Below the pieces are notes generated by a model. The model ran no database searches, had not been told where the DNA came from, and worked only from the letters and a program-made list of their open reading frames with translations. DNA of 21,069 bases from a virus. Its lineage: Duplodnaviria > Heunggongvirae > Uroviricota > Caudoviricetes. The translations under genes and the position numbers were made by a program. The first letter of the stretch is position 1. Each line of letters opens with the position of its first letter. The stretch is from the IMG/VR virus record IMGVR_UViG_2630968342_000014; one strand, written 5' to 3'. Positions 75 to 19,757 of this stretch are shown here, piece after piece.

Positions 75-1361
75 TTACCCCACTTTCTTATGGGGCATAC
101 ATGGGACACTTTCAGATAGTCTTTTGTTAAGGAGTTCTATCTGTTCGTGATTGTTGTCTTTCATCCATGCTCCGTAAACATTGAATACCATTTGTGCGTT
201 TATGTGGCCCATCTGGCTTGCGATAAAACTAGGATTAGCTCCAGCGGCAAGTGACCAGCATGCATAAGTATGCCTGGATTGGTACGATTTTCTGTGTCTC
301 AGACCTGCGCGTTTTAAGATACTTGTCCATGACTCCCTGATGGAGTCAACCTTGTAGTGAGGTCCGGACAACTGCTGCTGTTTTGTTACCTGAGGACTAA
401 AAACAAAAGTGCATTTATGCACAGCAGTTCTCCCATATTCCCTCTGCTTCACCTCTACAGAATGTTGCTTTCCAAGCATGGTCATTTCCGCCTGGCTTTT
501 AAGAGCATCAATAGCTGGTTGAACCAGATGAATTGTCCTTCCGGTGCCTGCATCGGTTTTTGGTGGAGTGAATTCGCCAAGTTTTGTATAATTTCTACGG
601 ATGGTTATAGTCCTTGCTTTAAGGTCTATATCTTCCCATGCCAGCGATACCAACTCCCCGTGACGAATACCCGTGTATACAGCGAGAATCCACAGGTTTT
701 TTGTTTGTTGATGACGGCAAGCCTCAATAAAACGAATAAATTCGTCACGGGTGAGAGGATCTGGTTTTACCTTGGACTTTTTTAAGGGAGCCAGACCGTT
801 AAATGGGTTTCCTGAGGTATAACCATTATCTGTTGCAAATTGAAACATTCCAGCTATGGTTGTCATATAGTAGTTTACCGTGACCACTGAGCGCCCTTTT
901 ATGGAAGAAGTCTTTCCATTAGAAAGCTTTTGGTAACCGGTCAACAAATCTCTCCTTACGAAAAGTAAATCCTCTTTTGTTATGGATGAAACCAGTTTTT
1001 TTTCACCTAACATTGGTAACATGTTTTTAATTACTGACTGGTAACGGTTAAGTGCATTCGCACAAATCTCAATTTTCTTAAGGTCCAACCATTTTTCCGA
1101 AAGTGCCTTAACGGTTATCTCTCTTTTTCCCAGACCAAAGTGTTTCAGGTTAGGGGAATTAGGGAACTGCGCGGCGTAGTCGAAACTCCCCATTCTGATT
1201 GCAAAACAAACGGAAGTGCGAAGTTCACCAGCGATCTTCCGGTTTTTGGCTGTGTCAGGAACACCGAGGTTTTCTCTGACACGTTTGCCATTATAGTGAA
1301 ACCATATACGGAGTGATCCTCCATGGTTTTCAACGCCTGTCGGGTATGATGCGTTACTCAT
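75..1361 (-). CDS. int: Phage tyrosine integrase (site-specific recombinase)
   Basis: 428-aa ORF at the window edge. C-terminal catalytic region has conserved Arg in TGIRHGEL, an R-H-T-Y motif (SRHTYACW) and a Tyr near the C-terminus (NVYGAWM), typical of the lambda-integrase family. N-terminus is basic, as for an arm-binding domain. Sits next to a small excisionase-like gene. Confidence 0.9.
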   Translation of the reverse strand: MSNASYPTGVENHGGSLRIWFHYNGKRVRENLGVPDTAKNRKIAGELRTSVCFAIRMGSFDYAAQFPNSPNLKHFGLGKREITVKALSEKWLDLKKIEICANALNRYQSVIKNMLPMLGEKKLVSSITKEDLLFVRRDLLTGYQKLSNGKTSSIKGRSVVTVNYYMTTIAGMFQFATDNGYTSGNPFNGLAPLKKSKVKPDPLTRDEFIRFIEACRHQQTKNLWILAVYTGIRHGELVSLAWEDIDLKARTITIRRNYTKLGEFTPPKTDAGTGRTIHLVQPAIDALKSQAEMTMLGKQHSVEVKQREYGRTAVHKCTFVFSPQVTKQQQLSGPHYKVDSIRESWTSILKRAGLRHRKSYQSRHTYACWSLAAGANPSFIASQMGHINAQMVFNVYGAWMKDNNHEQIELLNKRLSESVPCMPHKKVG

Positions 1362-1394: not shown

Positions 1395-1649
1395 TTAACC
1401 GGAACTTGCATTTTTGGCACCTGGTTGTTTCTGGTTTTCGATCCATCGCATAATTTCTTCGATGTTGTACAGGCATTCACTGTAGTGCCCCGGATCACCT
1501 TCTACAGCGTAATGGCGGTATTCTTTTCCCTGCATCCATGACTTTCTTCTTGCCCGCTCAATGGTGCCAGGCTTTAGCCCTGTTGATGCAATGAGGACTC
1601 TCTCCGTACACCATTTGCTGGGGGTTATCTGATAGATGATTGTCTGCAT
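1395..1649 (-). CDS. xis: Excisionase-like small DNA-binding protein
   Basis: 84-aa basic ORF immediately upstream of int on the same strand. ATG at 1649 with GAGG Shine-Dalgarno. Position and size fit a prophage excisionase; family assignment is from memory, not searched. Confidence 0.6.
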   Translation of the reverse strand: MQTIIYQITPSKWCTERVLIASTGLKPGTIERARRKSWMQGKEYRHYAVEGDPGHYSECLYNIEEIMRWIENQKQPGAKNASSG

Positions 1650-2968: not shown

Positions 2969-3160
2969 CTATTTCACCTTAATCTCAACATTTCGCAGTT
3001 TTAGCTCCACTGGCAGTTCTGACTTTCCGGTTAAAGCTAATGCGAGATTTTCTGGAGTAATGAGAGCTGTTATTGTTCTCCCCATCGCCAGACGAATAAT
3101 CATTCGTATCTCGCGATCGTCACATGCTCCCGGTCGAACAATTGAGATTTGTCCGTTCAT
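2969..3160 (-). CDS. Hypothetical phage protein (63 aa)
   Basis: The track ORF 2969-3181 starts at TTG. The in-frame ATG at 3160 is preceded by a strong AAGGAG Shine-Dalgarno and directly follows the stop of the upstream gene. Confidence 0.5.
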   Translation of the reverse strand: MNGQISIVRPGACDDREIRMIIRLAMGRTITALITPENLALALTGKSELPVELKLRNVEIKVK

Positions 3161-3161
3161 C

Positions 3162-3923
3162 TCACTCTCCTTTGATGCCAATGTTTACAGCCTTGCAAGC
3201 CTCTTTGAGTACCCAGTCAACAGCGTCTTTCCATGCTCCGGTTTCGACTGGCGGATTTTCACGCTTAACCTGTTCATAGAAGCGCACTGCTTTAACCAGT
3301 CCTTCCGGTACTACTGGCGATGGCTGTTTAGCTTCTAAATCAGCAATTCTGTCAACCACGGCATCGACAGCATCAGAAAAGCCGAACCAGTTACTCCACT
3401 CCGGCCTATCCCCGGTTGCTGCAAAGTACATATCAGCTAAAGCAGACTCAGCATGGTCACGCTCATTAATGAGTTGCTCTTCGCTTTTCTCCAGTTCAGC
3501 AATGCGCTTACTCCCATCCGAGATAACACCTTCGTAATACTCACGCTGCTCGTTGAGTTTTGATTTTTCTGCCTCAAGCTCAACGCGCAGCTTCCCTACC
3601 GTTAGCGAAATTTCCTCGTTCTCCTGGTCGCGGCGTTTGATGTATTGCTGGTTCCTTTCCCGTTCATCCAGTAGTGCCAGCACGGTAGCCGGGTTAGCCT
3701 CTGCTATGAATTCAGCGTTTGCATAAGCCTGAGCATCTGTTTCAATCAGGCAGTTAATATGACATTCCGCAATCACGCCACCGGGTTCTCCTTTCCATTT
3801 TTGGCAAACAAAAACTCCTGTTAAATTGCCGTGCTGGTTAACAGATGTATGCCCTACGATGTAGCTTCCTTTAGTTGCTTTCTCTGCCTTTTCACGCAGT
3901 ACCTGATAGTTAATGTTGCTCAC
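3162..3923 (-). CDS. Ead/Ea22-like protein
   Basis: 253-aa ORF. GTG start at 3923 with AAGGAGG Shine-Dalgarno 6 nt upstream. Central coiled-coil-like acidic region (ELEAEKSKLNEQREYYEGV...) and overall architecture resemble Ea22-family early-left proteins of lambdoid phages; from memory. Confidence 0.6.
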   Translation of the reverse strand: MSNINYQVLREKAEKATKGSYIVGHTSVNQHGNLTGVFVCQKWKGEPGGVIAECHINCLIETDAQAYANAEFIAEANPATVLALLDERERNQQYIKRRDQENEEISLTVGKLRVELEAEKSKLNEQREYYEGVISDGSKRIAELEKSEEQLINERDHAESALADMYFAATGDRPEWSNWFGFSDAVDAVVDRIADLEAKQPSPVVPEGLVKAVRFYEQVKRENPPVETGAWKDAVDWVLKEACKAVNIGIKGE

Positions 3924-3935
3924 TGGTTGCCTCCT

Positions 3936-4160
3936 TTACGGATCTGCGCTGCGATGCCACGAAAAAAAAGACTTTCGCGTATGACTGTTAAGAGCTGGCG
4001 CGAACGCCGCGTTAAGAACGGCGGCATCACAGCCGTCATCGATATAGAGCGCAATTTTTTTCTCCAGGCGTGCTTTGGCTTCCTGCAACTGCATATCCCG
4101 GCACGCACGCGGGATATACTCAGCAATTTGAGCGATAGATTTTTCGTTCTGTTTAAACAT
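3936..4160 (-). CDS. Hypothetical phage protein (74 aa)
   Basis: ATG at 4160 with GAGGTGA Shine-Dalgarno; ATGA-type overlap with the upstream gene. The overlapping track ORF 3920-4273 in another frame is Arg-rich and looks spurious. Confidence 0.55.
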   Translation of the reverse strand: MFKQNEKSIAQIAEYIPRACRDMQLQEAKARLEKKIALYIDDGCDAAVLNAAFAPALNSHTRKSFFSWHRSADP

Positions 4161-4356
4161 GCTTCACCTCGATAGGCTTGATGGTATCGATCAGCAGTCG
4201 GCGGCGAGTATTTTCTGCAAAGTGGCGGCGTCCGGTTTCTTTGTGGTAAAACTCGTTTTTTCCGACGACCCACATCCGCTTTGTCTGGTGCAGTTTTTTT
4301 ACCTGCGGACCGTCTCGGGTGATAACAATTCCTGTATGAGTTTTTATCACGCTCAT
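4153..4356 (-). CDS. Hypothetical small phage protein (67 aa), possibly YfdT-like
   Basis: ATG at 4356 overlaps the stop of the upstream gene (translational coupling). Position after the YfdS-like gene mirrors the CPS-53 yfdS-yfdT order. Confidence 0.5.
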   Translation of the reverse strand: MSVIKTHTGIVITRDGPQVKKLHQTKRMWVVGKNEFYHKETGRRHFAENTRRRLLIDTIKPIEVKHV

Positions 4357-4715
4357 TTTTTATTCTTCGGTGCTTTCGGCATTACTGCCCAGTGAGTGAT
4401 ATTGACGTTTTCAAGGTCCCCGACCTGAAATGTCCACTGCCATTCTCCGGTTTCTTTTTGTCCCCAGGTGTACCAGAGAGAACGCCAGCCAATTAGCCAG
4501 CCTTCTCCGTTAGCATCAAATAACAGAACACTTTCATTTGCTGGCGGCAGTTCAGCTGACACTGGTATTATTTTGTTTTCCAGTGCCGCACATTTAGCTT
4601 CAAGCGCATCGAATTTACGTACCAGGTACTCAGCATTTGTTTCATTCACTTTCAGATCTCGTGGTACACATTTCCCGCGAAGAAACCCTTCCATTTCGAA
4701 AACATTCATGCGCAT
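4353..4715 (-). CDS. YfdS-like phage protein (120 aa) with DUF551-like C-terminal motif
   Basis: ATG at 4715. Predicted coiled-coil N-terminus; C-terminal ...NITHWAVMPKAP resembles the HW-x-PLP signature seen in the 2133-2966 protein. Same size as E. coli CPS-53 YfdS as I recall. Confidence 0.55.
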   Translation of the reverse strand: MRMNVFEMEGFLRGKCVPRDLKVNETNAEYLVRKFDALEAKCAALENKIIPVSAELPPANESVLLFDANGEGWLIGWRSLWYTWGQKETGEWQWTFQVGDLENVNITHWAVMPKAPKNKK

Positions 4716-5242
4716 TTGCGTAACTCCGATAACTCGTTAAAACGTTCCATAAACATCCCGTAGGCATGGCCTGGTGACAGTGGAATAACTTTGAACATCT
4801 CTGTCGCCGGGATACCTTCCAGTACAGGCCAGAAAGAGCCATCATCAAGCCCGAGATCGCGACGTTCGGTTGCCAGCATAATGAGATCGGCATATTTCAC
4901 AGGCGTGCTCATAACAGGAGGTAACCCGTATTTCTCACGGATTACGGCGTCTATTTTTTCTTCCATCCGTTTATAGTCAGGAAGAAGGCGTTTCAGTGGA
5001 GCTGGGATGTCCTGGCAATACGCTTCTGTTGCATCATGCATTAACGCTTCAAAAGCAAATTCCTGCGGTACCAGCTGGCTGCAAAGCACCGCATGTTGGG
5101 CGACGCTGTAGAAGTGTGAAAGATGTCCTGCAAAGCGACAGATATTTGAAAGGGAAACCGCGATATCGTTAATCACGATGTCGTCTTTATTTATCCTGTC
5201 ATAATAAAAATGCTTCCCGGAAAAAGTTTTAATAAATGACAT
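4706..5242 (-). CDS. HD-domain phosphohydrolase, YfdR-like 5'-deoxynucleotidase
   Basis: HD-superfamily metal-binding motifs: His in HFYSVAQHA and His-Asp in EALMHDATEAY. The track ORF extends to 5305, but the in-frame ATG at 5242 (MSFIKTFSGK...) is preceded by GGAGAA Shine-Dalgarno, giving about 178 aa, the size of E. coli YfdR. Confidence 0.75.
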   Translation of the reverse strand: MSFIKTFSGKHFYYDRINKDDIVINDIAVSLSNICRFAGHLSHFYSVAQHAVLCSQLVPQEFAFEALMHDATEAYCQDIPAPLKRLLPDYKRMEEKIDAVIREKYGLPPVMSTPVKYADLIMLATERRDLGLDDGSFWPVLEGIPATEMFKVIPLSPGHAYGMFMERFNELSELRKCA

Positions 5243-5370
5243 TTTGTTCTCCACTTTATATGCGCTGCACCGCGCTGAATTTTGGTTAAAGAAAACCCTC
5301 GCCATCAGGCGATTATTGAGTCAATTATGTTTCCATAAATGCCCCCGCAGGGGCATTTGCAGTAATGAAA

Positions 5371-6195
5371 TCAGGCGGTGAAAGTACCAATAAAGGTTTC
5401 TGCTTTGCTGTCTTTAAATTTCTCAACAAGCAGATCACGAAATTCGTTAGCCATTTCTTCCTGCACTGCTTCCAGCTGAATAATGCGCAGAACCAGTACA
5501 GGACGATCGCCAGTGATAATGCTGAGGCGTAATTTAAACGGACGTTCTTTCAGGCCTTCAAACGGAACGCATTTAAATTCAAATGCCACTGGCATAATGT
5601 CTTTGGTCTTCGCTTCGACAGACTCCATCAGGGAGCGTTTGCCGCTGAAGTCATTATCTTCAAAATCAGCGGTCTGGTTTGCTTCAATCGTGATTTTACG
5701 GACTACCGCAGCCGCTTTTGTTGCCTTAATAGCGTCACCATTAGCATCAAAGCCCACAAGATAGTCGGCCCAGTCTTCAATCCATTCTGCCAGTGACTTC
5801 TGGGAGTTACGCTCGCCGTTAACAGACAACAGAGCAGAGAACGGTGCTGTCTTTTTCAGTTTGAGTGTGGCGGTGTTATCTGCGTGACCTGGTTCACCAA
5901 TAGTACCCAGGTTAAGCACACTGACGGCACGCATATTATCAGCATCGATAAAGCAGCGGGTGCCTTCATCTGCAAGATCTTTAGAATAACGGGTAAAGTC
6001 ATCGATGCTGGCAGTGGAAAGCGCACCACGGAAACGGAAGCGATTTAAATTAAATTTTTCCAGATCATGAATGCGGAAATTCTCAGGCAATGCCACAGCA
6101 TCGGCACCAATCTTACTGATAATTTCATTAACACCCTGAGCAGAAATAAGGGCATGGATTTGATTAATTGCGGTTGCGTCTAAGTTCTGAGACAT
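5371..6195 (-). CDS. YfdQ-like protein (DUF2303 family), function unknown
   Basis: 274-aa ORF, ATG at 6195 with GAGGA Shine-Dalgarno. Size and gene order (P-Q-R-S-T) match the CPS-53 yfdQ position; family name from memory. Confidence 0.6.
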
Positions 6196-6260
6196 AATAA
6201 GTCCTCACTATATTAAGATATTCAGTGATGAGATAAATAATCAGTTAATTAAGAACGATA

Positions 6261-6623
6261 TTAATGACCTGCTGCGCGGAGTTTTCCGTCAGGTTCACCG
6301 GCAAGAGTCAGTAATTGTCCCTGGTCTTCCTGCAGAATAGTCAGGCGACCACCGCGATTGACATACATCGGCGTTTCGGTGGTGTCTTCTTCGGAAATTT
6401 TCCCGCGGTTAGTCGGACGAACATATGAGAGTTTGTGTTTTATTTTCACACGGTTCTCATCAAACGGTTCGATTTCCAGGTTGAGCGAGACCTTCCCTTT
6501 GGTTTTCGTGTTCATCACACCTGAAGCGACTTCACTGAGAACAGCGCCGATTTTGGTTTCAAATACGCCGCCGTCCAGCTCCCCGATAAATGCCTGCACA
6601 TCAGTACTGCGTTCGCTAGCCAT
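6261..6623 (-). CDS. YfdP-like small protein (120 aa), first gene of the early-left operon
   Basis: The track ORF 6261-6809 begins at a TTG with an implausible Cys/Arg-rich extension. The in-frame ATG giving MASERSTDVQAFIGELDGG... is preceded by GAGGAG Shine-Dalgarno. Start coordinate derived from ORF-track frame arithmetic (codon 63 of the track ORF). Confidence 0.6.
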   Translation of the reverse strand: MASERSTDVQAFIGELDGGVFETKIGAVLSEVASGVMNTKTKGKVSLNLEIEPFDENRVKIKHKLSYVRPTNRGKISEEDTTETPMYVNRGGRLTILQEDQGQLLTLAGEPDGKLRAAGH

Positions 6624-6760
6624 TTTGCTGCTCCTCATCATATCGACCCTGCAAGGTCGGTTGGTTTCTCCACAAAACAGAGAAGAACACCTGCGGTGGC
6701 AGCCGCCCGGATGGATTGGGTTATGAGCCCGTCGTCCGGTGATGCTCTTCTCTGTTTTGT

Positions 6761-7094: not shown

Positions 7095-7529
7095 ATGTCC
7101 GGTAATATCTACACGTTGTACAAATCCCACTGTGAAAATGTTGGAAAGTATCGGGGCATTGAAATCAGTGGGATAGTGTCATCAGTCGAAATAAGCAAAG
7201 TGGAATCAAGGGCAACATTACTTACTCTTCTGGATCTTGTCTTACATGAGCACCGGAAGAAATTCGGCACTCCCTATAATCAGTTGAATGGGAAAAAGGC
7301 TCTGGTTCACCTTATTCTGATGAAGCATCACTGGATGCCAAAACAGATTAATGAGATGAAATTTGATGAACTTCTTCTTTCAATTCAGGATGAACTCACA
7401 CTTGATAAAATAAGCGTAACCGCCCAGAAATTTTTAGATTATCGAGACTGGAGATCACAAATTCATCACTTTGATGATTTTGACGAAAATGAATGGGATC
7501 CTAATTTGTCTGCACAATATCTAAAGTAA
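7095..7529 (+). CDS. Hypothetical accessory protein (144 aa), no recognisable domain
   Basis: ATG at 7095 with AAAAGGAAAAG Shine-Dalgarno. Visibly more AT-rich than flanking phage genes. Opposite orientation to the surrounding early-left genes; two 18-19-bp direct repeats lie just upstream and a plus-strand intrinsic terminator lies downstream. Confidence 0.55.
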   Translation: MSGNIYTLYKSHCENVGKYRGIEISGIVSSVEISKVESRATLLTLLDLVLHEHRKKFGTPYNQLNGKKALVHLILMKHHWMPKQINEMKFDELLLSIQDELTLDKISVTAQKFLDYRDWRSQIHHFDDFDENEWDPNLSAQYLK

Positions 7530-7789: not shown

Positions 7790-7874
7790 GTTGCTAACGA
7801 ATCATCCTGGACTTCATATGCCCCAGGCGGCTACTTCGTGGGTGTCCTGCCTGTTCGTTGTCTTAACACCTTTA

Positions 7875-7915
7875 AGTTGTAATTTAGTTGTGGTTTTGAA
7901 TGTTGTCAACAACTT
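7875..7915 (-). promoter_or_regulatory. PL-like leftward promoter overlapped by OL-like operator motifs
   Basis: On the minus strand: TTGACA (complement of 7904-7909), 17-bp spacer, TAAATT (complement of 7881-7886). Flanked and overlapped by the operator motifs found between cI and cro (ACAACTTTATG at 7909-7919 and 9562-9572; AGTTGTGG at 7886-7893 and 9595-9602). Confidence 0.5.
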
Positions 7916-7972
7916 TATGTGGTTTGAACGAGTAGCCAAGGAGTGCAAGGATTATCAAAAAAAGGAGGTTGT

Positions 7973-8863
7973 ATGGAAGACGCGCTTTACGCTTTTAATT
8001 ACACACAGAACCGGGACAAGTTATTTGCTAACTTGATTAGCATCATTGATGGAATCATTGCAGATGGAGTTGTCCGTGAAGAGGAGGTTCTTTACTTAGA
8101 TACATGGTTACTTGAAGCAAAGCAGATTATCAATAATGGAGTTATAAAAAGTCTATCTGCTCGGGTGTCGGATATTCTTGCGGATGGAATAATCACATCA
8201 GAAGAACGTGATGACCTTAAAAATAGCCTTCTCCAAATACAGAGGGAAATTCTTGATATCCCTGAAATTGATTTTTACTCCAAGGATGTAGATGTCCATT
8301 TACTTAATGGACTATGTAAAGGATTAATTGCTGATCGGAACTTAACTCAAGAAGAAATAAGATATCTTAATTGGTGGCTTGAGCAAAATGGAGCTTTGAA
8401 GAACAACTACCCAGGAAAAAAACTTTATGCACTTGTAAAGGAAATTCTTAAAGATGGTGTTATTACTGAAGATGAGAGTTTAACTCTACATAAGGCATTA
8501 GTAGACTTCACAGGATGTGACTTGGAAAGTGGGGTGGTGGATGGTTTGGCGACCAGGCTGCCTATTGATGTAGGGGCTTCGATAGAGTTAGAGGGTAAAA
8601 CCTATTGTCTTACAGGCACTTTTGTTGCAGGAAAGAGAGCCGTAGTTGAAAATTTGATTAAAAATGCTGGTGGGAACATCAGTAGTGGAATTACTCAAAA
8701 GTTGGATTTTTTAGTAATTGGGACGCTTTCCTCCCGTGATTGGAAATTCTCTAGTCACGGAAGGAAGATCGAAAAGGCTATATCTTATAGGGATGATAAT
8801 GGTGCAAAACTTAAAATTATTTCTGAAGAAATGCTTTTCGATGCATTACCAAGTTCGCGATGA
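7973..8863 (+). CDS. BRCT-domain protein with four N-terminal ~40-aa helical repeats (accessory gene)
   Basis: The track ORF starts at GTG 7943, but the ATG at 7973 has an AAAGGAGG Shine-Dalgarno. C-terminus (GKTYCLTGTFVAGKRAVVENLIKNAGGNISSGITQKLDFLVIGT...KLKIISEEMLFDAL) has the pattern of a BRCT domain like the C-terminus of NAD-dependent DNA ligase. N-terminal half carries four repeats of the form L-x-x-ILADG-x-IT-x-EE-x-x-L. AT-rich. The 3' end overlaps the cI 3' end. Confidence 0.7.
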   Translation: MEDALYAFNYTQNRDKLFANLISIIDGIIADGVVREEEVLYLDTWLLEAKQIINNGVIKSLSARVSDILADGIITSEERDDLKNSLLQIQREILDIPEIDFYSKDVDVHLLNGLCKGLIADRNLTQEEIRYLNWWLEQNGALKNNYPGKKLYALVKEILKDGVITEDESLTLHKALVDFTGCDLESGVVDGLATRLPIDVGASIELEGKTYCLTGTFVAGKRAVVENLIKNAGGNISSGITQKLDFLVIGTLSSRDWKFSSHGRKIEKAISYRDDNGAKLKIISEEMLFDALPSSR

Positions 8864-9532
8864 CCAGAATACCCTACCTATAACATGAATTCTGGCTCGT
8901 CTATCTTCAAAGGTGAGTATTTCATCTGGGTACTCATCTTTGTTGAAGCTTCTAAGAATCAAGCCACCGTCAGGTAAGTTGATAAGTATTTTAACCCTTA
9001 GCAATACACCATCTCGTACGGCATAAAGATCGCCATCACGAATAGGAACGGTTTGAGAAATATCAACGGCAACAAGATCTCCATTATTGAGAACCGGTAA
9101 TAAACTGTTCCCCCATATTTGTACGATCTTGGCATTAGATGCACATACGCCAGATTTTCTCAAATCTGCTCTTCTTAACGGAAACCAGTCAATAGCTGAT
9201 TCAACTATTTCAGCCAGACATCCGTTACCTGCCGATAACTCGACATCTAAAACAGGAATGTTTACGAAAATATCGGGGTCTAATGCGGTGCTTTCTGCTT
9301 CTTTTACAACAAGATCAGGTATGGATGCGTTGTCTTCAATACCAAGTTGTAACCACTTTTGTGATACACCTAAAACTTTTGCAATTTCTTTAATTTTGCG
9401 CGGTTGTAGAGTTTCGCCATTCTCTATTTTGGCTACAGATTGTTGTGAAAGTCCAATTTTTTCAGCTAGTTGAGCTTGGCTCATGCCAGCTTTCTCTCTA
9501 CCTATCTTTAATCGTTCTGCCAGTGTTTTCAC
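8846..9532 (-). CDS. cI: cI-like prophage repressor (HTH_XRE N-terminus, S24 LexA-like autopeptidase C-terminus)
   Basis: N-terminal XRE-type HTH (LAERLKIGREKAGMSQAQLAEKIGLSQQSVAKIENGE). Probable Ala-Gly cleavage site (ELSAGNG). Catalytic Ser (WGNSLLP) and Lys (LLRVKIL) in the C-terminal domain. GTG start at 9532 with AGAGGGA Shine-Dalgarno. Divergent from a Cro-like gene. Confidence 0.9.
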   Translation of the reverse strand: MKTLAERLKIGREKAGMSQAQLAEKIGLSQQSVAKIENGETLQPRKIKEIAKVLGVSQKWLQLGIEDNASIPDLVVKEAESTALDPDIFVNIPVLDVELSAGNGCLAEIVESAIDWFPLRRADLRKSGVCASNAKIVQIWGNSLLPVLNNGDLVAVDISQTVPIRDGDLYAVRDGVLLRVKILINLPDGGLILRSFNKDEYPDEILTFEDRRARIHVIGRVFWSSRTW

Positions 9533-9559: not shown

Positions 9560-9645
9560 TTACAACTTTATGTTTTAGCTTTCCAACATCTAAAAGTTGT
9601 GGTAAAAGTTGTTAATGTTGTATTCTTGCAGCTCGTAACAACTTA
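9560..9645. promoter_or_regulatory. OR-like operator/promoter region between cI and cro (divergent promoters)
   Basis: 136-bp intergenic region with at least four copies of the half-site ACAACTT/AAGTTGT in both orientations (9562, 9594, 9606, 9638). The same motifs recur near 7870-7920. Confidence 0.6.
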
Positions 9646-9667: not shown

Positions 9668-9916
9668 ATGACACCTGAGCAATTAGCCTTATCGGAGGCA
9701 ATCGCTCTGGCTGGTGGTCAATCAGAATTGGCTCGGAAGCTCACAGCCAGCAGCGGTCATTTAGTAAAGCAACAACATGTCTGGAACTGGTTGAACAGAG
9801 AAAAGCGTCCCCCTGCAAAGCTTTCGATATTCATTGAAAAGACCACTGGCATATCAAAAGAAAAATTACGTCCAGATATTTTTCAAAAGATTAAAGATTC
9901 ATCAGATGAAAAGTAA
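9668..9916 (+). CDS. cro: Cro-like / YdaS-like small HTH regulator
   Basis: 82-aa ORF divergent from cI. ATG at 9668 with AAAAAGGAGAAAG Shine-Dalgarno. HTH-like segment (GGQSELARKLTASSGHLVKQ). First gene of the rightward operon. Confidence 0.65.
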   Translation: MTPEQLALSEAIALAGGQSELARKLTASSGHLVKQQHVWNWLNREKRPPAKLSIFIEKTTGISKEKLRPDIFQKIKDSSDEK

Positions 9917-10496
9917 CCACAGTTTTAAGGAGATAGCCGTGGGTAAGCATCACTGGAAAATAGAAAAACAGCCTGAGTGGTACGTGAAAGCTGTCAGAAA
10001 AACTATCGCGGCGTTGCCGGGGGGTTACGCTGAAGCCGCTGACTGGCTGGATGTAACAGAGAACGCTTTATTCAATCGCCTTCGTGCCGATGGCGATCAG
10101 ATTTTCCCGCTGGGATGGGCAATGATTTTACAACGTGCTGGTGGAACTCACTTCATTGCTGACGCTGTGGCGCAGTCTGCAAATGGCGTCTTTGTGTCTC
10201 TTCCTGACGTCGAGGATGTGGACAACGCCGATATTAACCAGCGTCTGCTGGAAGTCATTGAACAGATCGGCAGTTATTCCAGACAGATTCGTTCAGCAAT
10301 CGAAGACGGTGTAGTGGAACCGCATGAGAAGACAGCAATTAACGACGAGCTGTACCTCTCAATTTCGAAGCTCCAGGAGCATGCAGCACTGGTCTACAAA
10401 ATCTTCTGCGCTCCAGAAAATAGTAACGCCCGCGAGTGTGCAGCTCCGGGCGTCGTGGCGTCGATTGCTTCTGGTTGTGGAGAAACTAACGCATGA
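9906..10496 (+). CDS. CII-like regulatory protein (YdaT / phage CP76-type, by position and size)
   Basis: The track ORF starts at TTG 9834; the in-frame ATG at 9906 (MKSNHSFKEIAVGK...) overlaps the cro-like stop. About 196 aa. Immediately downstream of cro as in YdaS/YdaT-type immunity modules. Family assignment from memory. Confidence 0.5.
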   Translation: MKSNHSFKEIAVGKHHWKIEKQPEWYVKAVRKTIAALPGGYAEAADWLDVTENALFNRLRADGDQIFPLGWAMILQRAGGTHFIADAVAQSANGVFVSLPDVEDVDNADINQRLLEVIEQIGSYSRQIRSAIEDGVVEPHEKTAINDELYLSISKLQEHAALVYKIFCAPENSNARECAAPGVVASIASGCGETNA

Positions 10497-10641
10497 ATAG
10501 TTTAACGGCAAATAACCGTTTGTCGCAACAGCTGGTGGTCAGCGTCGCTGAACACCTGTTGTTACGGCATGAATGCAGATTACCAAATCACCTGGCTGTA
10601 AGTAACCACAGAGAACTTTACCTGACTGTGGGGGGCGAGTT

Positions 10642-10821
10642 GTGCAGGAACTTAACCGCTGGTTTCGTGACGGAAGAGGACTTTATGTTCATGTTATTCG
10701 TTGGGAGCCAGAAACACAGCGCGTTATCTATCTTCGCAAAGACTACCCGCATGAGTGCTTTAGTCCTTTGTGGAAATTCAGGCGTGATTTTGTTGAGTGT
10801 GAAGGACCACCAGCATATTGA
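10642..10821 (+). CDS. Possible small ORF (59 aa, GTG start), not in the ORF track
   Basis: Hand translation: VQELNRWFRDGRGLYVHVIRWEPETQRVIYLRKDYPHECFSPLWKFRRDFVECEGPPAY, read from GTG at 10642 with a G-rich Shine-Dalgarno (GGGGGG at 10630-10635). Lies in a 600-bp gap that the track covers only with an implausible N-terminal extension of the rha ORF. Confidence 0.3.
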   Translation: MQELNRWFRDGRGLYVHVIRWEPETQRVIYLRKDYPHECFSPLWKFRRDFVECEGPPAY

Positions 10822-10907
10822 TTCTGCCATTTCGGGACGTTACACTGTCTCTGCACCTTATAAAGCGGGTGCCGGGATTGGCGTCCTGAAATTGATTACT
10901 GAGCATA

Positions 10908-10928
10908 ACCGCGCTCATGCGGTTTTTT
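10908..10928 (+). terminator. Candidate intrinsic terminator (tR1-like position)
   Basis: ACCGC-GCTCAT-GCGGT followed by TTTTTT: 5-bp GC-rich stem, 6-nt loop, U-tract. The reverse strand lacks a U-tract after the stem. Confidence 0.4.
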
Positions 10929-11098
10929 CGTGTCATGAGCATTGCTACGCCCAAATTATGGTGGGGCGTACAGGGCCGACTTCGGTCGGGCCGGGTTCGG
11001 TAGTCTCCGGTAACGCCAACCCTGTACGTCTCACCACCTCTGTGATTGGCGTCCCATGTGGTGAGTTTTCTAAAAAACTGACTACCGGGGCTGTCACT

Positions 11099-11656
11099 AT
11101 GACTACTCTCCCAACCCTCTCTCAACCTGAAATTGCCATCGTTGATGGTCAGGCTGTTACATCTTCTTTGGCTGTTGCTGACTTCTTCTCTAAACGTCAT
11201 GACGATGTTCTGAAAAAGATCCGCATTTTGGATTGTTCTCCAGAGTTTTGTGCCCGCAATTTTGCGGAGACATCAATTTTGGTACGCCAGCCCAACGGCG
11301 GTACTCGCAAACTACCTTGCTATCAAATAACCCGCGATGGCTTCGCGTTCCTTGCTATGGGCTTCACGGGTAAACGTGCTGCCCAGTTCAAAGAGGCATA
11401 CATCAATGCCTTTAACCAGATGGAGAAACAGCTTTCAAATCCCTCTGTACTGAGCGACGTTGCACATAACGCCAGCGTTCTCTATTCCTACATTTCATCA
11501 ATTCATCAGGTCTGGCTGCAGCAGCTTTATCCCATGTTGGCAAAAGCCGAATCCCCGCTGGCTGTAAGTCTGTATGACAGCATCAACGACGCGGCGCTAC
11601 TGGCCAGTCTCATAAATTTGTCGCTGAACCCTTCAGAGGTAAGGGGGCGCAAATGA
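11099..11656 (+). CDS. rha: Rha-family phage regulatory protein
   Basis: The N-terminus from the ATG at 11099 (MTTLPTLSQPEIAIVDGQAVTSSLAVADFFSKRHDDVLKKIRIL...ITRDGFAFLAMGFTGKRAAQFKEAYINAFNQME) matches the Phage_pRha domain pattern. The track ORF 10493-11656 fuses it to an upstream extension that looks non-coding. Confidence 0.8.
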   Translation: MTTLPTLSQPEIAIVDGQAVTSSLAVADFFSKRHDDVLKKIRILDCSPEFCARNFAETSILVRQPNGGTRKLPCYQITRDGFAFLAMGFTGKRAAQFKEAYINAFNQMEKQLSNPSVLSDVAHNASVLYSYISSIHQVWLQQLYPMLAKAESPLAVSLYDSINDAALLASLINLSLNPSEVRGRK

Positions 11657-12173: not shown

Positions 12174-13177
12174 GCCGTTACGCCCCCACACCGGAAGTTA
12201 TGGCTATTGGTCAAATTAATATTTCCGGCAATGTTACACCTGCGACCTGGTGGAAATATATTCGACTACCCAGTGGGCGTCCGGATGCGACGGCTATCGC
12301 TCTGCTTTCAGAGATCGTTTACTGGTACCGCCCGACAGAGGTCAGGGATGAGCACACCGGAGCGTTGCTGGGATATCGCAAGCGTTTTCAGGGCGACAAA
12401 CTGCAAAGAAGCTACCAGGCGTTTGCTGAGCAGTTTGGTTTCGGGAAAAGGGAAACCGCAGATGCGCTGAAGCGTCTGCGCGATGCAGGGTTTATTACTC
12501 TGGATTTACGCACGGTGGAAATGCTCGATGGGGTGAAATGCAGCAATATTTTGTTTGTCGGGATCAACCCACAGGCAATTGCGGCCATCACCACACCTTC
12601 TTCTGTTTCGCCAGAAAGTAACAGCAATAATGCAATCAGCGATACAGCTATTACGTTAAAACGGAACACCCCCCGACGTCATAACGGAACAGGGGATACG
12701 CCGAATGTTGATACAAATACAGAGATTACTACAGAGATTACTACAGAGATTACTACAGAGATTACAACGGAGACTAAAAACACTATTGGCGCATCCGCTG
12801 ACGCGTCTGCACCAGCGCGTTCTGCCCGACAGGAATATTCACCGGAATTTGAACAGGCCTGGCAGGAATATCCCAAACGTGCTGGTGGTAATTCAAAATC
12901 CGCCGCTTTTAAAGCCTGGAAAGCCCGAATCAGGGAAGGTGTGACACCCGAAACCATGCTCGACGGTGTGAAACGCTATGCCGCCTGGGTGCGTGTCTCT
13001 GGAAATACCGGTACCCAGTTCGTGAAGCAGGCGTCGACGTTCTTTGGTCCGGATCGTCATTTCGAAGAATCCTGGGAAGTTCCTGCGGTATCTGCAGTCA
13101 GACGCGAGGACCCGTACTTCAAAGCCAGTTACGACAACGTGGACTACAGCCAGATCCCGGCAGGATTCAGGGGGTGA
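12170..13177 (+). CDS. Phage replication initiation protein (O-like / replisome organiser) containing origin-like iterons
   Basis: ATG at 12170 with GGAGG Shine-Dalgarno. N-terminal DNA-binding-like region and C-terminal FEQAWQEYPKRAGG...AAFKAWKARI motif typical of phage replication-initiator C-termini. Four tandem 12-bp repeats inside the coding sequence, as in lambda O where ori lies within the gene. Confidence 0.7.
   Translation: MSRYAPTPEVMAIGQINISGNVTPATWWKYIRLPSGRPDATAIALLSEIVYWYRPTEVRDEHTGALLGYRKRFQGDKLQRSYQAFAEQFGFGKRETADALKRLRDAGFITLDLRTVEMLDGVKCSNILFVGINPQAIAAITTPSSVSPESNSNNAISDTAITLKRNTPRRHNGTGDTPNVDTNTEITTEITTEITTEITTETKNTIGASADASAPARSARQEYSPEFEQAWQEYPKRAGGNSKSAAFKAWKARIREGVTPETMLDGVKRYAAWVRVSGNTGTQFVKQASTFFGPDRHFEESWEVPAVSAVRREDPYFKASYDNVDYSQIPAGFRG
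12719..12775. repeat. Tandem 12-bp direct repeats (ACAGAGATTACT x4 plus a degenerate fifth): candidate ori iterons
   Basis: Read directly at 12719-12766 with a partial copy to 12775; encodes EITT-EITT-EITT-EITT in the replication protein. Position and periodicity are analogous to the lambda ori iterons within O. Confidence 0.7.
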
Positions 13178-13179
13178 GC

Positions 13180-13668
13180 ATGAGTCTTTTGAATGACGTT
13201 CAGAAATTCATTGAAGCCCATCCGGGGTGTACTTCCGGAGACATTGCGGATGCTTTTGCTGGTTACTCACGGCAGCGCGTTCTGCAGTCAGCAAGCAAGT
13301 TACGTCAGAGTGGGCGTGTGGCTCACCGTTGTGAAGGAGATACACGCAGACATTTCCCACGCCTGACTGAGAGAGCGCAGGATCCGGAACCACAACCAGT
13401 TCGTGAAACCAGACCTGTGCGCAATTTCTGTGTCGGCACTAACGACCCGCGGGTGATTTTGTGCCTGACCCGCCAGGCGGAAGAACTGGAGTCCAGGGGC
13501 TTATACCGTCGTGCTGCAACGGTGTGGATGGCGGCATTCCGTGAAAGCCACTCCCAGCCAGAACGAAACAATTTTCTGGCGCGTCGTGAACGGTGTTTAC
13601 GGAAAAGCAGTAAGCGGGCTGCATCAGGTGAAGAGTGGTATCTCTCAGGGAATTACGTGGGGGCTTAA
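13180..13668 (+). CDS. Hypothetical protein (about 162 aa), Arg-rich C-terminus
   Basis: The track ORF starts at GTG 13174; the ATG at 13180 has an AGGGGG Shine-Dalgarno. Occupies the position where lambdoid phages carry P/helicase-loader-type genes but is too short to be a DnaC/P homologue. No confident family. Confidence 0.45.
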   Translation: MSLLNDVQKFIEAHPGCTSGDIADAFAGYSRQRVLQSASKLRQSGRVAHRCEGDTRRHFPRLTERAQDPEPQPVRETRPVRNFCVGTNDPRVILCLTRQAEELESRGLYRRAATVWMAAFRESHSQPERNNFLARRERCLRKSSKRAASGEEWYLSGNYVGA

Positions 13669-14321
13669 TGAGTAATAAATATTGCCAGGCGCTGGCGGAA
13701 CTGCGGAACAAACCAGCCCATGAACTGAAGGAAGCGGGCGATCAGTGGCGCACGCCGGACAACATTTTCTGGGGAATTAACACTCTGTTTGGCCCGTTTG
13801 TTCTGGATCTGTTTACTGACGGTGATAACGCCAAATGTGCTGCGTATTACACGGCGGAAGACAACGCGTTGGCGCATGACTGGTCAGAACGCCTTGCGGA
13901 GCTTAAAGGTGCTGCCTTTGGTAATCCCCCATACAGCCGCGCCAGTCAGCATGAGGGGCAATACATCACCGGCATGCGTTACATCATGAAGCATGCCAGT
14001 GCCATGCGTGATAAAGGCGGGCGCTATGTTTTCCTGATCAAAGCTGCCACCAGCGAAGTGTGGTGGCCGGAAGATGCAGATCATATTGCTTTTATTCGCG
14101 GGCGTATTGGTTTTGAACTGCCTGCCTGGTTTATCCCGAAAGACGAAAAGCAGGTGCCAACAGGTGCTTTCTTCGCTGGTGCTATTGCTGTTTTCGACAA
14201 GACCTGGAAGGGAGCGGCAATCAGCTACATCGGGCGCGATGAACTTGAGGCATGTGGTGAGGCATTTCTGGCGCAGGTTCGCCAGCAGGCGGAAAAACTG
14301 GTCAGGGAGATGGCGGCATGA
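13668..14321 (+). CDS. Phage DNA N6-adenine methyltransferase (Dam-type)
   Basis: The ATG at 13668 overlaps the upstream stop (TAATG). Contains the N6-MTase catalytic tetrapeptide NPPY (AFGNPPYSR). The track ORF starts further upstream at 13635. Confidence 0.8.
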   Translation: MSNKYCQALAELRNKPAHELKEAGDQWRTPDNIFWGINTLFGPFVLDLFTDGDNAKCAAYYTAEDNALAHDWSERLAELKGAAFGNPPYSRASQHEGQYITGMRYIMKHASAMRDKGGRYVFLIKAATSEVWWPEDADHIAFIRGRIGFELPAWFIPKDEKQVPTGAFFAGAIAVFDKTWKGAAISYIGRDELEACGEAFLAQVRQQAEKLVREMAA

Positions 14322-17028: not shown

Positions 17029-17385
17029 ATGCGTGATATGTATGAAGTAATGGATCGTTGGGGAGCTTGGGCTGCTTCAGACAATAGCGGAGTGGACTGG
17101 CAGCCGATAGCGGCTGGTTTCAAGGGACTTTTACCTCATGGCAAAAAGTCACGGATTCAGTGTGATGATGACGAAGGCATCATGATAGACAGTTGTGTGG
17201 CTCGGTTGAGAAGGTATAAACCAGAGGAATATGAGCTCATCATCGCCCACTTTGTTATCGGTATCTCATTACGTACTATTGCGAAGAAGAGAAAATGCTC
17301 TGATGGCACAATTAGGAAGGAACTGCAAACTGCAATGGGGTTTGTTGACGGCTGTTTAGCAATGTTAGCTTATAGTATGGCATAA
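17029..17385 (+). CDS. Q: Late-gene antiterminator Q (small Q family)
   Basis: The ATG at 17029 has a GGAGAAAG Shine-Dalgarno (the track starts at TTG 17014). Motifs MDRWGAWAA, IAAGFKG, QCDDDEG and KCSDGTIRKELQ match the small Q-antiterminator family of phage 21/Rac-type prophages as I recall them. Confidence 0.8.
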   Translation: MRDMYEVMDRWGAWAASDNSGVDWQPIAAGFKGLLPHGKKSRIQCDDDEGIMIDSCVARLRRYKPEEYELIIAHFVIGISLRTIAKKRKCSDGTIRKELQTAMGFVDGCLAMLAYSMA

Positions 17386-18579
17386 AAAATAAAATAGATT
17401 TACTGCCGATTTTTCAAAAAAGACTGGGAACTGTTTATATCCAACGTAAATAAGGCCTCCATAAAACATGGCTGATGCGAGATATTTAACAGTTCTCATC
17501 CTTTTTTTAGCTTTATCAATCAAACCTGTAATGCTACTCTTAATACTATCTGCATTATCTTTGATTTCTTTATTTTCTTCAAACTTTAAATACTTATCGA
17601 AAGCGGACTCCACTCGAGAACGTAAGTTGTCGAATGTTTCATTGAATATCTCAATAGAAATGTAATTGACTTTTTTTATCATCCAAAGTCCTGCGATAAT
17701 CAATATTGCTTCGGTTGTTTCATTAGCCTTCACTAAGCCACCAGCAGCTATTAATGCACCGGGAATAGTCAATGCTTTTGTCTGATTAGATGATATGAAT
17801 TCGTTAATTTTACTCGTGAACTCAAGATTTTTCTCATCGAGTTCGTTAAGAATTTTATTTACAGAAAACCTCTTTGTGTAAATCTCATATAGTTCATCAT
17901 ATTTTTTCCTGACGAGTTCAGTAGAGTTAAGCAAGTCAAAGAAATTGAACGTACCATTTGCTTTAAATACTTCGTTTATGGCTGAGCGTATAACGAGCTT
18001 GCGCTCGCTTTTGTGTAAATCATTGATTTTTATTGTGTCGAGAAGCTCCTTTATAATTTCATATTTAAGAGACGAGTTCGATAAGCGATTAATCTCGCTA
18101 TATTGTAAAAAATGCGTGAGTTCGACTGTATAACTTTTGTCTTCATTGGTGAAAAATAAGACAGAGCAGTCACTGTTATGATGATCAGCAATTAATGAAA
18201 GGATATCTTTCCACATAAAGAAAATATGGATTTTTTCGATGCTTTCATTCTTAGAAGTAGGGAGTATTAACGGCGTTCCGATGATATAATTTTTCGGAAG
18301 AGCGTTTTGGGTGTTTACTCTAGACCAAAAAGACTCAACATTCTCATAAATTATAGCGTCATCCCAAGATGAAGCTTGGCGATCTAGCCAAATTTCATTA
18401 TTTTCGATGCAGGTTGTTGCCTTTTTATAACCTATAGATTGTAACAGTCTAATTATTTCAGAACTATTTACAATAACAATGCTTTCTTCAAGACTTATGA
18501 CAGTGTAGTAGCCCTCAACTCTGCTTGAGGCTCCGTTAATAATCTGCGCTAATCTTGATAAGTCATCAGCAATTGTCAT
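17365..18579 (-). CDS. Membrane protein (404 aa): about 265-aa soluble N-terminal domain plus C-terminal transmembrane segments; second gene of the AT-rich cassette
   Basis: The ATG at 18579 lies 2 nt after the upstream stop (coupled). Hydrophobic stretches ALTIPGALIAAGGLV, AILIIAGLWMI and YLASAMFYGGLIYVGY near the C-terminus. AT-rich. The 3' end overlaps the 3' end of Q by 21 bp (convergent). Confidence 0.65.
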   Translation of the reverse strand: MTIADDLSRLAQIINGASSRVEGYYTVISLEESIVIVNSSEIIRLLQSIGYKKATTCIENNEIWLDRQASSWDDAIIYENVESFWSRVNTQNALPKNYIIGTPLILPTSKNESIEKIHIFFMWKDILSLIADHHNSDCSVLFFTNEDKSYTVELTHFLQYSEINRLSNSSLKYEIIKELLDTIKINDLHKSERKLVIRSAINEVFKANGTFNFFDLLNSTELVRKKYDELYEIYTKRFSVNKILNELDEKNLEFTSKINEFISSNQTKALTIPGALIAAGGLVKANETTEAILIIAGLWMIKKVNYISIEIFNETFDNLRSRVESAFDKYLKFEENKEIKDNADSIKSSITGLIDKAKKRMRTVKYLASAMFYGGLIYVGYKQFPVFFEKSAVNLFYFLCHTIS

Positions 18580-18581
18580 TA

Positions 18582-19757
18582 TTAGCTGTCTCTATATCTT
18601 TTGAGTTCATCATAATTTGCCTGACTCAATTTTATCACAATTTCGCATTTGTTGTCAGTGAGAATTACAGGCTTATTTGACTTTTCGTCTCCAATAGCTC
18701 CACGCATTATTTTCAACTTAAAATTATTGTCGTTATCTGCCACTTCAATTGTAAGCGCGCTTTCAGCTGCTTTAGGAGTTGGTTCAAATTGAGGGTCAAT
18801 CTGGAAACCATTAAGATTAACAAAATCGACAAACGTTCCCTTACATTTGTGTGAATCAGTCAGGCATGAGTCAATTATTTTTGAAATATCCTCTATCTTA
18901 ACGGACTTATTTCCGTGTTTATCTTTTGATTTTTTTTCCAGTAAGGATTTAACTTCATTGTCAATAGTATCACGCAGTACACGACCGAGTGAGTTTTTAC
19001 TAGCAAAAATATCTATAGCACTGAATAATTGCTGAATGCTTCTTTTATTGTCCGAATCATGTCGGCAACCTAATGAGTCTTTGAAAAAATCGCTTTTAGA
19101 TTTACCTTGCAAGAAATGTACATATGAGTCACCCTTGTTTTCTGGATAACTGGCTTCGAATAAAGTTAAATCGAACATCGCAGCCTGCCGTAAGGCATCG
19201 GTATTAATTGGATTTAATCTTGTTGGGGTCAACTTATCCGAATCAAAGTCATAGGCGCTTTGTTTATCAACCATTACGATTAGAAGTTTCCCCAAATCCT
19301 CTGGTTCGGTAGACTTATAGTGGATGAAAACAACGCTCCCCCCCTGAAGTTGGGCAACTCTCGATTCGTTATTAGCATTATGTTTAAGCTTCTCTATTAT
19401 AGCTCTAGATAAATCAATGAATTCATTATTTTTATTAATGTATTTTTTTAGGATCGTAGGAATGGATGAAGGGTTGTGATCTGAGTCTAGGAAGTTATGA
19501 AATTTGTTTTTTCGGCTAAATTTTTTCTCAATTCTGGTTATGAATTCAGATGTGACTTCATTTTTTAGATCCCAAACTTCACCTAATCGATAATCAAATG
19601 CTCTTGAATCATTTTTTTCAAGATTTGCTGTTACAGCACCAATAGGAAAGTACGATTGTTTGCCCAGCACTACAACATGAGGCGTGGCACCGCATTTATC
19701 GCAAGCTACAGTTGGGTCGTCAAGAACATTGCCACATTCTAAACAAGTTATATCCAT
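18582..19757 (-). CDS. Zinc-ribbon plus NdpA/YejK-like (nucleoid-associated protein family) domain protein; first gene of the AT-rich cassette
   Basis: ATG at 19757. N-terminal C-x2-C-x12-C-x2-C zinc ribbon (CLECGNVLDDPTVACDKCG). Central region GGSVVFIHY...LLIVMVD...YVHFLQGKSKSDFFKDSLG parallels the E. coli YejK/NdpA blocks GGFVLFCHY...YLTFLKG...DFFMDFLG, recalled from memory. Strongly AT-rich with A/T-ending codons. Confidence 0.65.
   Translation of the reverse strand: MDITCLECGNVLDDPTVACDKCGATPHVVVLGKQSYFPIGAVTANLEKNDSRAFDYRLGEVWDLKNEVTSEFITRIEKKFSRKNKFHNFLDSDHNPSSIPTILKKYINKNNEFIDLSRAIIEKLKHNANNESRVAQLQGGSVVFIHYKSTEPEDLGKLLIVMVDKQSAYDFDSDKLTPTRLNPINTDALRQAAMFDLTLFEASYPENKGDSYVHFLQGKSKSDFFKDSLGCRHDSDNKRSIQQLFSAIDIFASKNSLGRVLRDTIDNEVKSLLEKKSKDKHGNKSVKIEDISKIIDSCLTDSHKCKGTFVDFVNLNGFQIDPQFEPTPKAAESALTIEVADNDNNFKLKIMRGAIGDEKSNKPVILTDNKCEIVIKLSQANYDELKRYRDS

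Follow-up and report, generated by a model that had tools for sequence, protein, structure and literature searches.

We wanted to define what a compact block of five leftward genes does in a tailed phage, the IMG/VR record IMGVR_UViG_2630968342_000014 (Caudoviricetes), of which the whole analysed stretch of 21,069 nucleotides (nt) is called the window below. The block lies on the minus strand at positions 4153-6623 and consists of five closely packed, head-to-tail open reading frames (ORFs) of 120, 274, 178, 120 and 67 amino acids (aa). A first-pass annotation had likened it to the yfdP-yfdT genes of Escherichia coli K-12 CPS-53, placed it early-left in the phage genome and proposed that an HD-domain 5'-deoxynucleotidase in it modifies nucleotide pools. 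The ORF sizes and order that it listed were correct, with exact coordinates on the minus strand. It is essentially certain that the block is the yfdP-yfdQ-yfdR-yfdS module found in the leftward early operon of SfV-, mEp460- and ST64B-type lambdoid phages, and equally so that an unrelated small phage ORF occupies the place of yfdT after yfdS. This block is already known and annotated and is very common; only its fifth gene had been misidentified.

To compare the block with its K-12 counterpart, MG1655 reference proteins and DNA were taken from NC_000913.3 and used in BLASTP and direct DNA comparisons. The first gene of the block (6261-6623, minus strand) encodes a YfdP orthologue of 120 aa, 99.2% identical to the K-12 protein over 120 aa with the single change L59V. 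The yfdQ orthologue (5371-6195, minus) encodes 274 aa with 97.8% identity over 274 aa. The yfdR orthologue (4706-5242, minus) encodes 178 aa with 97.8% identity over 178 aa, the changes being K16R, N151K, A156S and D170E. The yfdS orthologue (4353-4715, minus) encodes 120 aa, 99.1% identical to K-12 YfdS over residues 1-117 of 120, and its last four residues differ. At the DNA level, window positions 4365-6642 matched CPS-53 with 96.9% identity and the match stopped in the last codons of yfdS, indicating that the homology with CPS-53 breaks just inside the end of this gene. The gene order is that of CPS-53 (KpLE1) yfdP-yfdT (b2359-b2363), and the sizes of P, Q, R and S are equal in both. The match of yfdP-yfdS to K-12 is thus far beyond chance, and the likeness to CPS-53 that had been proposed holds for four of the five ORFs (97.8-99.2% aa identity) but fails for the fifth. 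After yfdS, K-12 CPS-53 carries yfdT (101 aa), ypdJ and torI, whereas in the window the unrelated 67-aa ORF comes next, then a 74-aa ORF and an Ea22-like gene. Upstream of yfdP, the two sequences differ as well. A second CPS-53-like segment, 98% identical and corresponding to the yfdO/yfdN/yfdM region, is present at 13102-13934 (plus strand); its PerC-like and adenine-methyltransferase genes are full length, while the K-12 copies are truncated remnants.

The fifth ORF (4153-4356, minus) gave no BLASTP match to K-12 YfdT, which at 101 aa is also longer, and a tblastn search with YfdT over the whole window had its best hit at an unrelated place (E = 0.17). The assignment of this ORF as yfdT was therefore rejected for want of similarity and for its size. 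It is nevertheless a real conserved phage gene, matching phrog_1226 (E = 2e-42), the RefSeq hypothetical protein WP_000111289.1 and gp31 of phage mEp460. In mEp460 (NC_019716), gp35-gp31 comprise all five ORFs, the 67-aa one included, with the order and overlaps seen in the window, and gp31-gp35 are annotated there as similar to SfV orf29-32. The overlaps are of 10 nt between yfdR and yfdS and of 4 nt between yfdS and the 67-aa ORF, whose start overlaps the yfdS stop (ATGA); spacers of 65 nt and 128 nt separate yfdP from yfdQ and yfdQ from yfdR, respectively. An ATG farther upstream in the open yfdR frame, at 5305, would yield an alternative product of 199 aa; the ATG at 5242 has GGAG 6 nt upstream, and homologues begin at this same start.

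The other three proteins were also assigned to families. YfdP matched phrog_204 (E = 1.2e-49), and PF27127.1 is annotated on the 99%-identical database protein P0121 as well as on all YfdP homologues among the matches listed. YfdQ is a DUF2303 protein (PF10065), scoring 301.3 bits against a cut-off of 26.6 with residues 7-272 aligned to profile positions 2-269 of 269. YfdS matched phrog_583 (E = 3e-82), and its C-terminal half is DUF551-like: residues 50-117 aligned with the whole 68-position model of PF04448 at 21.8 bits, the cut-off being 22.0. K-12 YfdS has been reported with DUF551 (PMC4776307). The window annotation can thus be fixed with confidence as yfdP, yfdQ, yfdR, yfdS and an unrelated 67-aa ORF. 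This has little discovery value, the genes being named, annotated in RefSeq and present in thousands of E. coli genomes, with a K-12 copy that has already been dissected.

What the block would do for the phage is suggested by that dissection. In multicopy, the K-12 cluster suppressed the over-initiation of hda-185 cells, which is how it was isolated (PMC4776307, Noguchi and Katayama 2016). Its minimal active set was yfdQ and yfdR together with either yfdS or yfdT, yfdP being dispensable, and multicopy yfdQRS or yfdQRT inhibited initiation at oriC in wild type, hda-185, dnaAcos-type, seqA and diaA backgrounds; extra yfd copies also raised hydroxyurea resistance (PMC4776307). DnaA pulled down YfdR only, this binding required DnaA domain I and was weakened by F46A, and YfdR moderately inhibited both DiaA-DnaA and DnaB-DnaA binding, while extracts containing YfdQRST inhibited oriC replication in vitro (PMC4776307). 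In later papers, too, YfdR is presented as a prophage product that competes with DnaB for domain I of DnaA (PMC5448010, PMC12122000). The published function of the yfd gene set is therefore not mainly the skewing of nucleotide pools.

The window holds the complete published minimal set: its Q, R and S are intact, each sharing at least 97.8% identity with the K-12 allele that was tested. On the strength of these near-identical orthologues, we somewhat favour a host-takeover mechanism in which the block would damp host initiation through DnaA domain I. In this scheme, inactivation of the repressor would lead to transcription of the block leftward from the promoter pL. YfdR, which at 97.8% identity presumably retains the binding of its K-12 orthologue to DnaA domain I, would contact this domain around Phe46 and compete there with DiaA and the DnaB helicase. 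Acting along with YfdQ and YfdS, it would then hold back new rounds of host oriC initiation during phage replication. Lambda P, DiaA, Dps and L2 likewise bind host DnaA and depress oriC initiation, which is an analogy and implies no homology. YfdR uses the DiaA/DnaB site on DnaA domain I (PMC4776307, PMC5448010) and is an HD hydrolase that is not known to take part in phage replication. Lambda P, itself the loader of the phage helicase, attaches to domain III of DnaA.

Several points weigh against this mechanism. The functional data were all obtained by multicopy or overexpression in K-12, where deletion of yfdQRST had no replication phenotype (PMC4776307). The pL is a consensus match only, with two plus-strand genes placed around it or between it and yfdP. 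In addition, the YfdR-type family is very large, with genes of this type in 330 phage records, many of them from virulent or jumbo phages (of Bacillus, Caulobacter and Rhizobium) with no detectable yfdQ. Since the catalytic residues are conserved family-wide, the ancestral, selected function of the family is enzymatic, and the binding to DnaA may be a lineage-specific or an overexpression effect.

YfdR itself belongs to the HD superfamily of metal-dependent phosphohydrolases, and its closest solved structure is Agrobacterium Atu1052 (PDB 2GZ4), with E = 2e-13 from the single sequence and 4e-28 from the family profile. Atu1052 aligns with YfdR over nearly its full length, but as a chromosomal structural-genomics protein it brings fold information only. 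YfdR matched phrog_318 (E = 6e-110), and an exhaustive search at E <= 1e-3 gave homologues in 22,758 cluster representatives (50% clustering). Conservation was assessed on an alignment of 40 diverse homologues with 41-68% identity. H40, H50, H69, D70, E73, D78, K84, D119 and E126 were invariant or conserved in at least 90% of them and are all present in the window YfdR, whose four substitutions relative to K-12 avoid every conserved position. The HD metal-ligand pattern H...HD...D corresponds to H50, H69-D70 and D119, to which E73 and D78 are added. Against Pfam HD_3, YfdR scored 17.0 bits with a threshold of 22.5.

The host 5'-deoxynucleotidase/dCMP phosphohydrolase YfbR (PDB 2PAQ) has in common with YfdR the metal-site motif H-D-A-x-E-x(4)-D-x(3)-P-x-K, but the likeness is limited to about 45-70 residues around it. 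The YfdR family profile aligned with YfbR over the HD motif with 94.6% hhalign probability (E = 6.5e-8) and with 2PAQ at E = 2.6e-4. YfdR fell below the cut-offs of both curated YfbR models, with 24.3 bits for PF12917 (cut-off 25.9) and 19.9 for NF003009 (cut-off 122), residues 41-104 being aligned. This indicates that YfdR forms a sister family, and its assignment as a YfbR equivalog was rejected. A relationship with phage T5 Dmp, the deoxynucleoside-5'-monophosphatase T5.001, was rejected as well, the hhalign probability being 0.1%; Dmp has the same nominal activity in a phage early gene and is at most a functional analogue. The description of this protein as an HD-domain 5'-deoxynucleotidase thus stands as regards orthology to YfdR, the HD superfamily and the name in RefSeq, where K-12 YfdR is annotated 5'-deoxynucleotidase, but not as regards the thresholds of the YfbR models. 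Judging from its intact active site, YfdR probably still hydrolyses nucleoside or deoxynucleoside 5'-monophosphates (NMPs or dNMPs), weakly.

This raises the possibility that YfdR works as a nucleotide-pool enzyme, its catalysis on dNMPs, NMPs or some other phosphorylated nucleotide or signal reshaping the pools in lytic growth or blunting a nucleotide-based defence, with DnaA binding incidental. We consider this conceivable but rather unlikely. The full HD catalytic set conserved in the 40 homologues and kept in the window argues for it, as does the size of a family that many virulent and jumbo phages carry without detectable yfdQ. Its annotation points the same way, since 'deoxyribonucleoside 5' monophosphate phosphatase' is the label of the PHROG families 318, 6402 and 8467, in line with the name given to K-12 YfdR. 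Moreover, the same operon encodes at 2133-2966 a PF04447 protein that could in principle supply dNMPs, and HD (YfbR-like DatZ) and DUF550 (MazZ-type) enzymes cooperate in the pool control of Z-genome phages (PMC12884076). However, in the passage of PMC4776307 that cites Zimmerman 2008, YfdR's affinities for nucleotides are put far below YfbR's, and its function is said to remain 'elusive'. Deletion of yfdR in K-12 left the yield of cytidine monophosphate unchanged in an engineered strain (PMC10870394). The PF04447 gene stood beside the block in only 4 of the 28 close loci with enough flank, which makes a fixed two-step pathway unlikely; such a PF04447-YfdR pathway was rejected on this count, the gene also being missing from the closest genome match. 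Finally, the literature search turned up no report of an anti-defence function. None of the five block proteins matched a PADLOC model at E <= 0.01, in a library that excludes anti-defence proteins and so does not address the idea of counter-defence. A defence or anti-defence role of the block was rejected on this absence of matches in that library and of reports in the literature search. The pool-modifying role first proposed would be compatible with an intact HD active site, but the activity demonstrated for the gene set is DnaA binding and oriC inhibition, with low reported affinities of YfdR in the cited passage.

The PF04447 protein itself (2133-2966, minus) is of 277 aa and constitutes a second nucleotide-metabolism enzyme in the leftward operon. 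Residues 42-137 match PF04447, 'dATP/dGTP pyrophosphohydrolase' (DUF550, MazZ-type), with E = 6e-42, and residues 199-273 at its C-terminus match DUF551 (E = 1e-20), which makes it a further DUF551 protein next to YfdS. In the PDB it has no sequence relative, and its presence is reminiscent of DatZ/MazZ pairing in Z-genome phages (PMC12884076).

We also determined which genes of the block travel together. A close-relative sample was made of 69 IMG/VR loci that had enough flank and whose YfdQ was at least 98% identical. P, Q and R were present in all 69 loci and S in 48; downstream of the block, YfdT was found in 31 loci, the 67-aa ORF in 17 and both in 3. A distant-relative sample comprised 80 loci from 17 YfdQ clusters that are 41-61% identical to the window YfdQ. 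A YfdP homologue was present in 17/17 of these clusters and in 76 of the 80 loci immediately preceded yfdQ, while a YfdR homologue followed in 10/17 clusters. The order is P-Q-R in ST64B and P-Q-x-R in Pseudomonas phage LPPA56. In the Vibrio podophage 34E29.1, P-Q are followed by ssb, with no R within the 7.8-kb stretch examined. In the O104:H4 Stx2a phage P13374, gam-recT-exo-ssb are followed by a broken P and then Q, with no R in the stretch examined. The YfdP homologues directly upstream of yfdQ were recognised with hhalign probabilities of 99.4% in Vibrio 34E29.1 and 99.6% in Pseudomonas LPPA56, and the yfdP-like genes upstream of yfdQ lie at 3091-3437 in phage P13374 (locus L084), 3040-3447 in locus L086 and 3072-3419 in locus L087. 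At the yfdP position of P13374, two short annotated ORFs jointly match YfdP, suggesting a disrupted gene. Altogether, the adjacency across the sampled loci indicates that yfdP-yfdQ form a tight unit, while yfdR, yfdS and the gene that follows can be exchanged. The yfdP-yfdQ pair is near-obligate and adjacent down to about 40% identity, in Vibrio and Pseudomonas phages.

In another reading, this pair, adjacent in every lineage examined, would be the conserved core of the module in place of the HD enzyme. We hold it doubtful, though conceivable, that the pair could be a two-protein host-takeover device. It might, for example, be the specificity or assembly part of a complex that targets DnaA or the replisome, with YfdR and DUF551 proteins among the exchangeable effectors brought in. 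If this were true, a very common prophage module would represent a general phage strategy for switching off the initiation of the host chromosome. The function of the YfdP-YfdQ pair is in any case a small and tractable question. The AlphaFold models of YfdQ and YfdP, with pLDDT values of 77 and 73, gave uninformative structural neighbours and matched no DNA-binding or nuclease fold.

The same neighbourhoods bear on a further explanation, in which YfdP and YfdQ act on phage DNA, for instance single-stranded DNA or forks, as replication or recombination accessories to which YfdR and YfdS are add-ons. We find this improbable. It draws on the constant company of yfdP and yfdQ (17/17 clusters, ST64B, the Vibrio podophage and LPPA56, with the broken copy in P13374) and on the position of yfdQ, which comes after gam-recT-exo-ssb in P13374 and sits between a DnaQ-like exonuclease gene and ssb in 34E29.1. 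The sensitivity of a yfdQ deletion to methyl methanesulfonate (MMS), as mentioned in PMC4776307, would also fit. Against this, PMC12315714 argues that hidden recombination proteins are unlikely since the cluster co-exists with complete Rec modules, the YfdP and YfdQ models resemble neither DNA-binding proteins nor nucleases, and evidence from neighbourhood is weak in mosaic early operons.

To see how widespread the block is, its 2471 bp were compared by megablast with all complete E. coli genomes (n = 5426). It was found in 3088 of them, with a coverage of at least 80% in 2123 (about 40% of the genomes), mostly at 95-99% identity. The best genome match, at 99.8%, was a prophage adjoining mlrA in a human isolate of Shiga toxin-producing E. 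coli. In RefSeq the products are labelled 'protein YfdP', 'YfdQ family protein', 'yfdR: 5'-deoxynucleotidase' and 'phage protein' or 'YfdS family'. Among isolated phages, the block is carried by mEp460, cdtI, SfIV and Stx2c and Stx2a phages. The whole window is a mosaic relative of Stx2a_WGPS2, Stx2a_1447, phiSTEC1575-Stx2k, 1720a-02, mEp460 and cdtI, and in shared stretches its nucleotide identity to mEp460, cdtI, SfIV, Stx2c, Stx2a_1447 and Stx2a_WGPS2 is about 94-95%.

This abundance could reflect a benefit to the lysogen, low-level expression from the prophage helping the host through stress from oxidants, acid or alkylation, for instance by delaying initiation. That the block survives in the decayed CPS-53, and that about 40% of complete E. 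coli genomes have it, is consistent with this, and so are phenotypes cited at second hand in PMC4776307: cells deleted for CPS-53 are more sensitive to H2O2 and acid, those deleted for yfdQ or yfdS are more sensitive to H2O2 (Wang 2010), and those deleted for yfdQ are more sensitive to MMS (Rooney 2009). These phenotypes, however, are weak and were seen in one strain with single genes knocked out. Nor are the genes placed like a moron, with a promoter and terminator of their own; they belong to a repressed early-left operon. The plaque-forming mEp460, ST64B and cdtI conserve the block equally well, and a common phage module would show a high prevalence too. We thus give little credence to a lysogen benefit as the function of the block.

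As to its surroundings, the block has the cI/cro region on one side and xis/int on the other, is on the same strand as int and is downstream of a promoter-like site bearing operators, int being at 75-1361 (minus) and xis at 1395-1649 (minus). A cI-like S24/helix-turn-helix repressor gene is located at 8846-9532 (minus) and a cro-like gene at 9668-9916 (plus), after which the rightward early genes follow. A candidate leftward operator and promoter (OL/pL) was found at 7873-7928 on the minus strand, with a sigma-70-like TTGACA-17 nt-TAAATT (7909 to 7881) that matched 10/12 consensus positions in a promoter scan and is flanked by ACAACTTW words. Eight such words occur in the window where 1.8 are expected, and none of 100 shuffles reached 8. 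Six of the eight are grouped at 7873-7916 and at 9562-9645, the latter patch being between the cI-like and cro-like genes. Positions 7873-7928 and 9562-9645 therefore look like a candidate pair of OL/pL and rightward operator (OR), and the pL-like site would be the promoter of the block. The early-left placement first suggested agrees with position and strand, the promoter and operators being consensus and word matches. No gene for an N-like antiterminator was recognised between the candidate pL and yfdP.

Between the repressor gene and yfdP, the window carries an ECs1072-family gene (7095-7529, plus) and a gene for a BRCT-domain protein (7973-8863, plus). Because the ECs1072 gene lies on the plus strand between pL and yfdP, a transcript from pL would have to cross it antisense to reach yfdP. 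In mEp460-type phages the block also lies between a cI-like repressor gene and Ea22/xis/int, but the immunity region and the plus-strand genes between repressor and yfdP differ from those of the window. Both plus-strand genes are of low GC content, about 38-40%, inside the early-left region. The BRCT-domain gene is placed between the candidate OL/pL and the repressor gene, whose 3' end it overlaps, and its product gave a weak match to PADLOC PDC-S48 (E = 2e-7). These two genes are possibly morons expressed in the lysogen, or defence candidates.

Within the block, the 128-nt spacer between yfdQ and yfdR (5243-5370, minus) is predicted to be structured. RNA folding gave -41.4 kcal/mol, compared with -28.9 +/- 3.3 for shuffles (z = -3.8). 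A GC-rich 8-bp hairpin (5337-5358) comes directly after the yfdQ stop codon, and a small hairpin with a T-rich run at 5299-5312 appeared terminator-like in a consensus scan (5312-5299). This predicted structure may mark a partial boundary between P-Q and R-S sub-units, which it would fit. The spacer hairpins may be an attenuator or an RNA-stability element; Rfam gave no RNA family within the block.

Elsewhere in the window, two Rfam matches reached gathering level on the plus strand, the isrK Hfq-binding RNA (59 bits, 10853-10929) and the C4 antisense RNA (82 bits, 10954-11041). They are inside the 5' part of an Ash/Rha-type regulator ORF (10493-11656), and constitute a P1/P7 immI-like element of antirepressor control in a lambdoid prophage. 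Just after a Q-like antiterminator gene, a low-GC island (33-37%) extends over 17365-19757 on the minus strand. Of its two minus-strand genes, one encodes a 404-aa protein for which neither Pfam nor PADLOC gave a match, the other a 391-aa homologue of the NA37 nucleoid-associated protein (E = 1e-23), and the position and composition of the island suggest a moron or a defence-type insertion. Beyond the island, a gene for an AraC-family regulator (20356-21069) runs off the end of the window.

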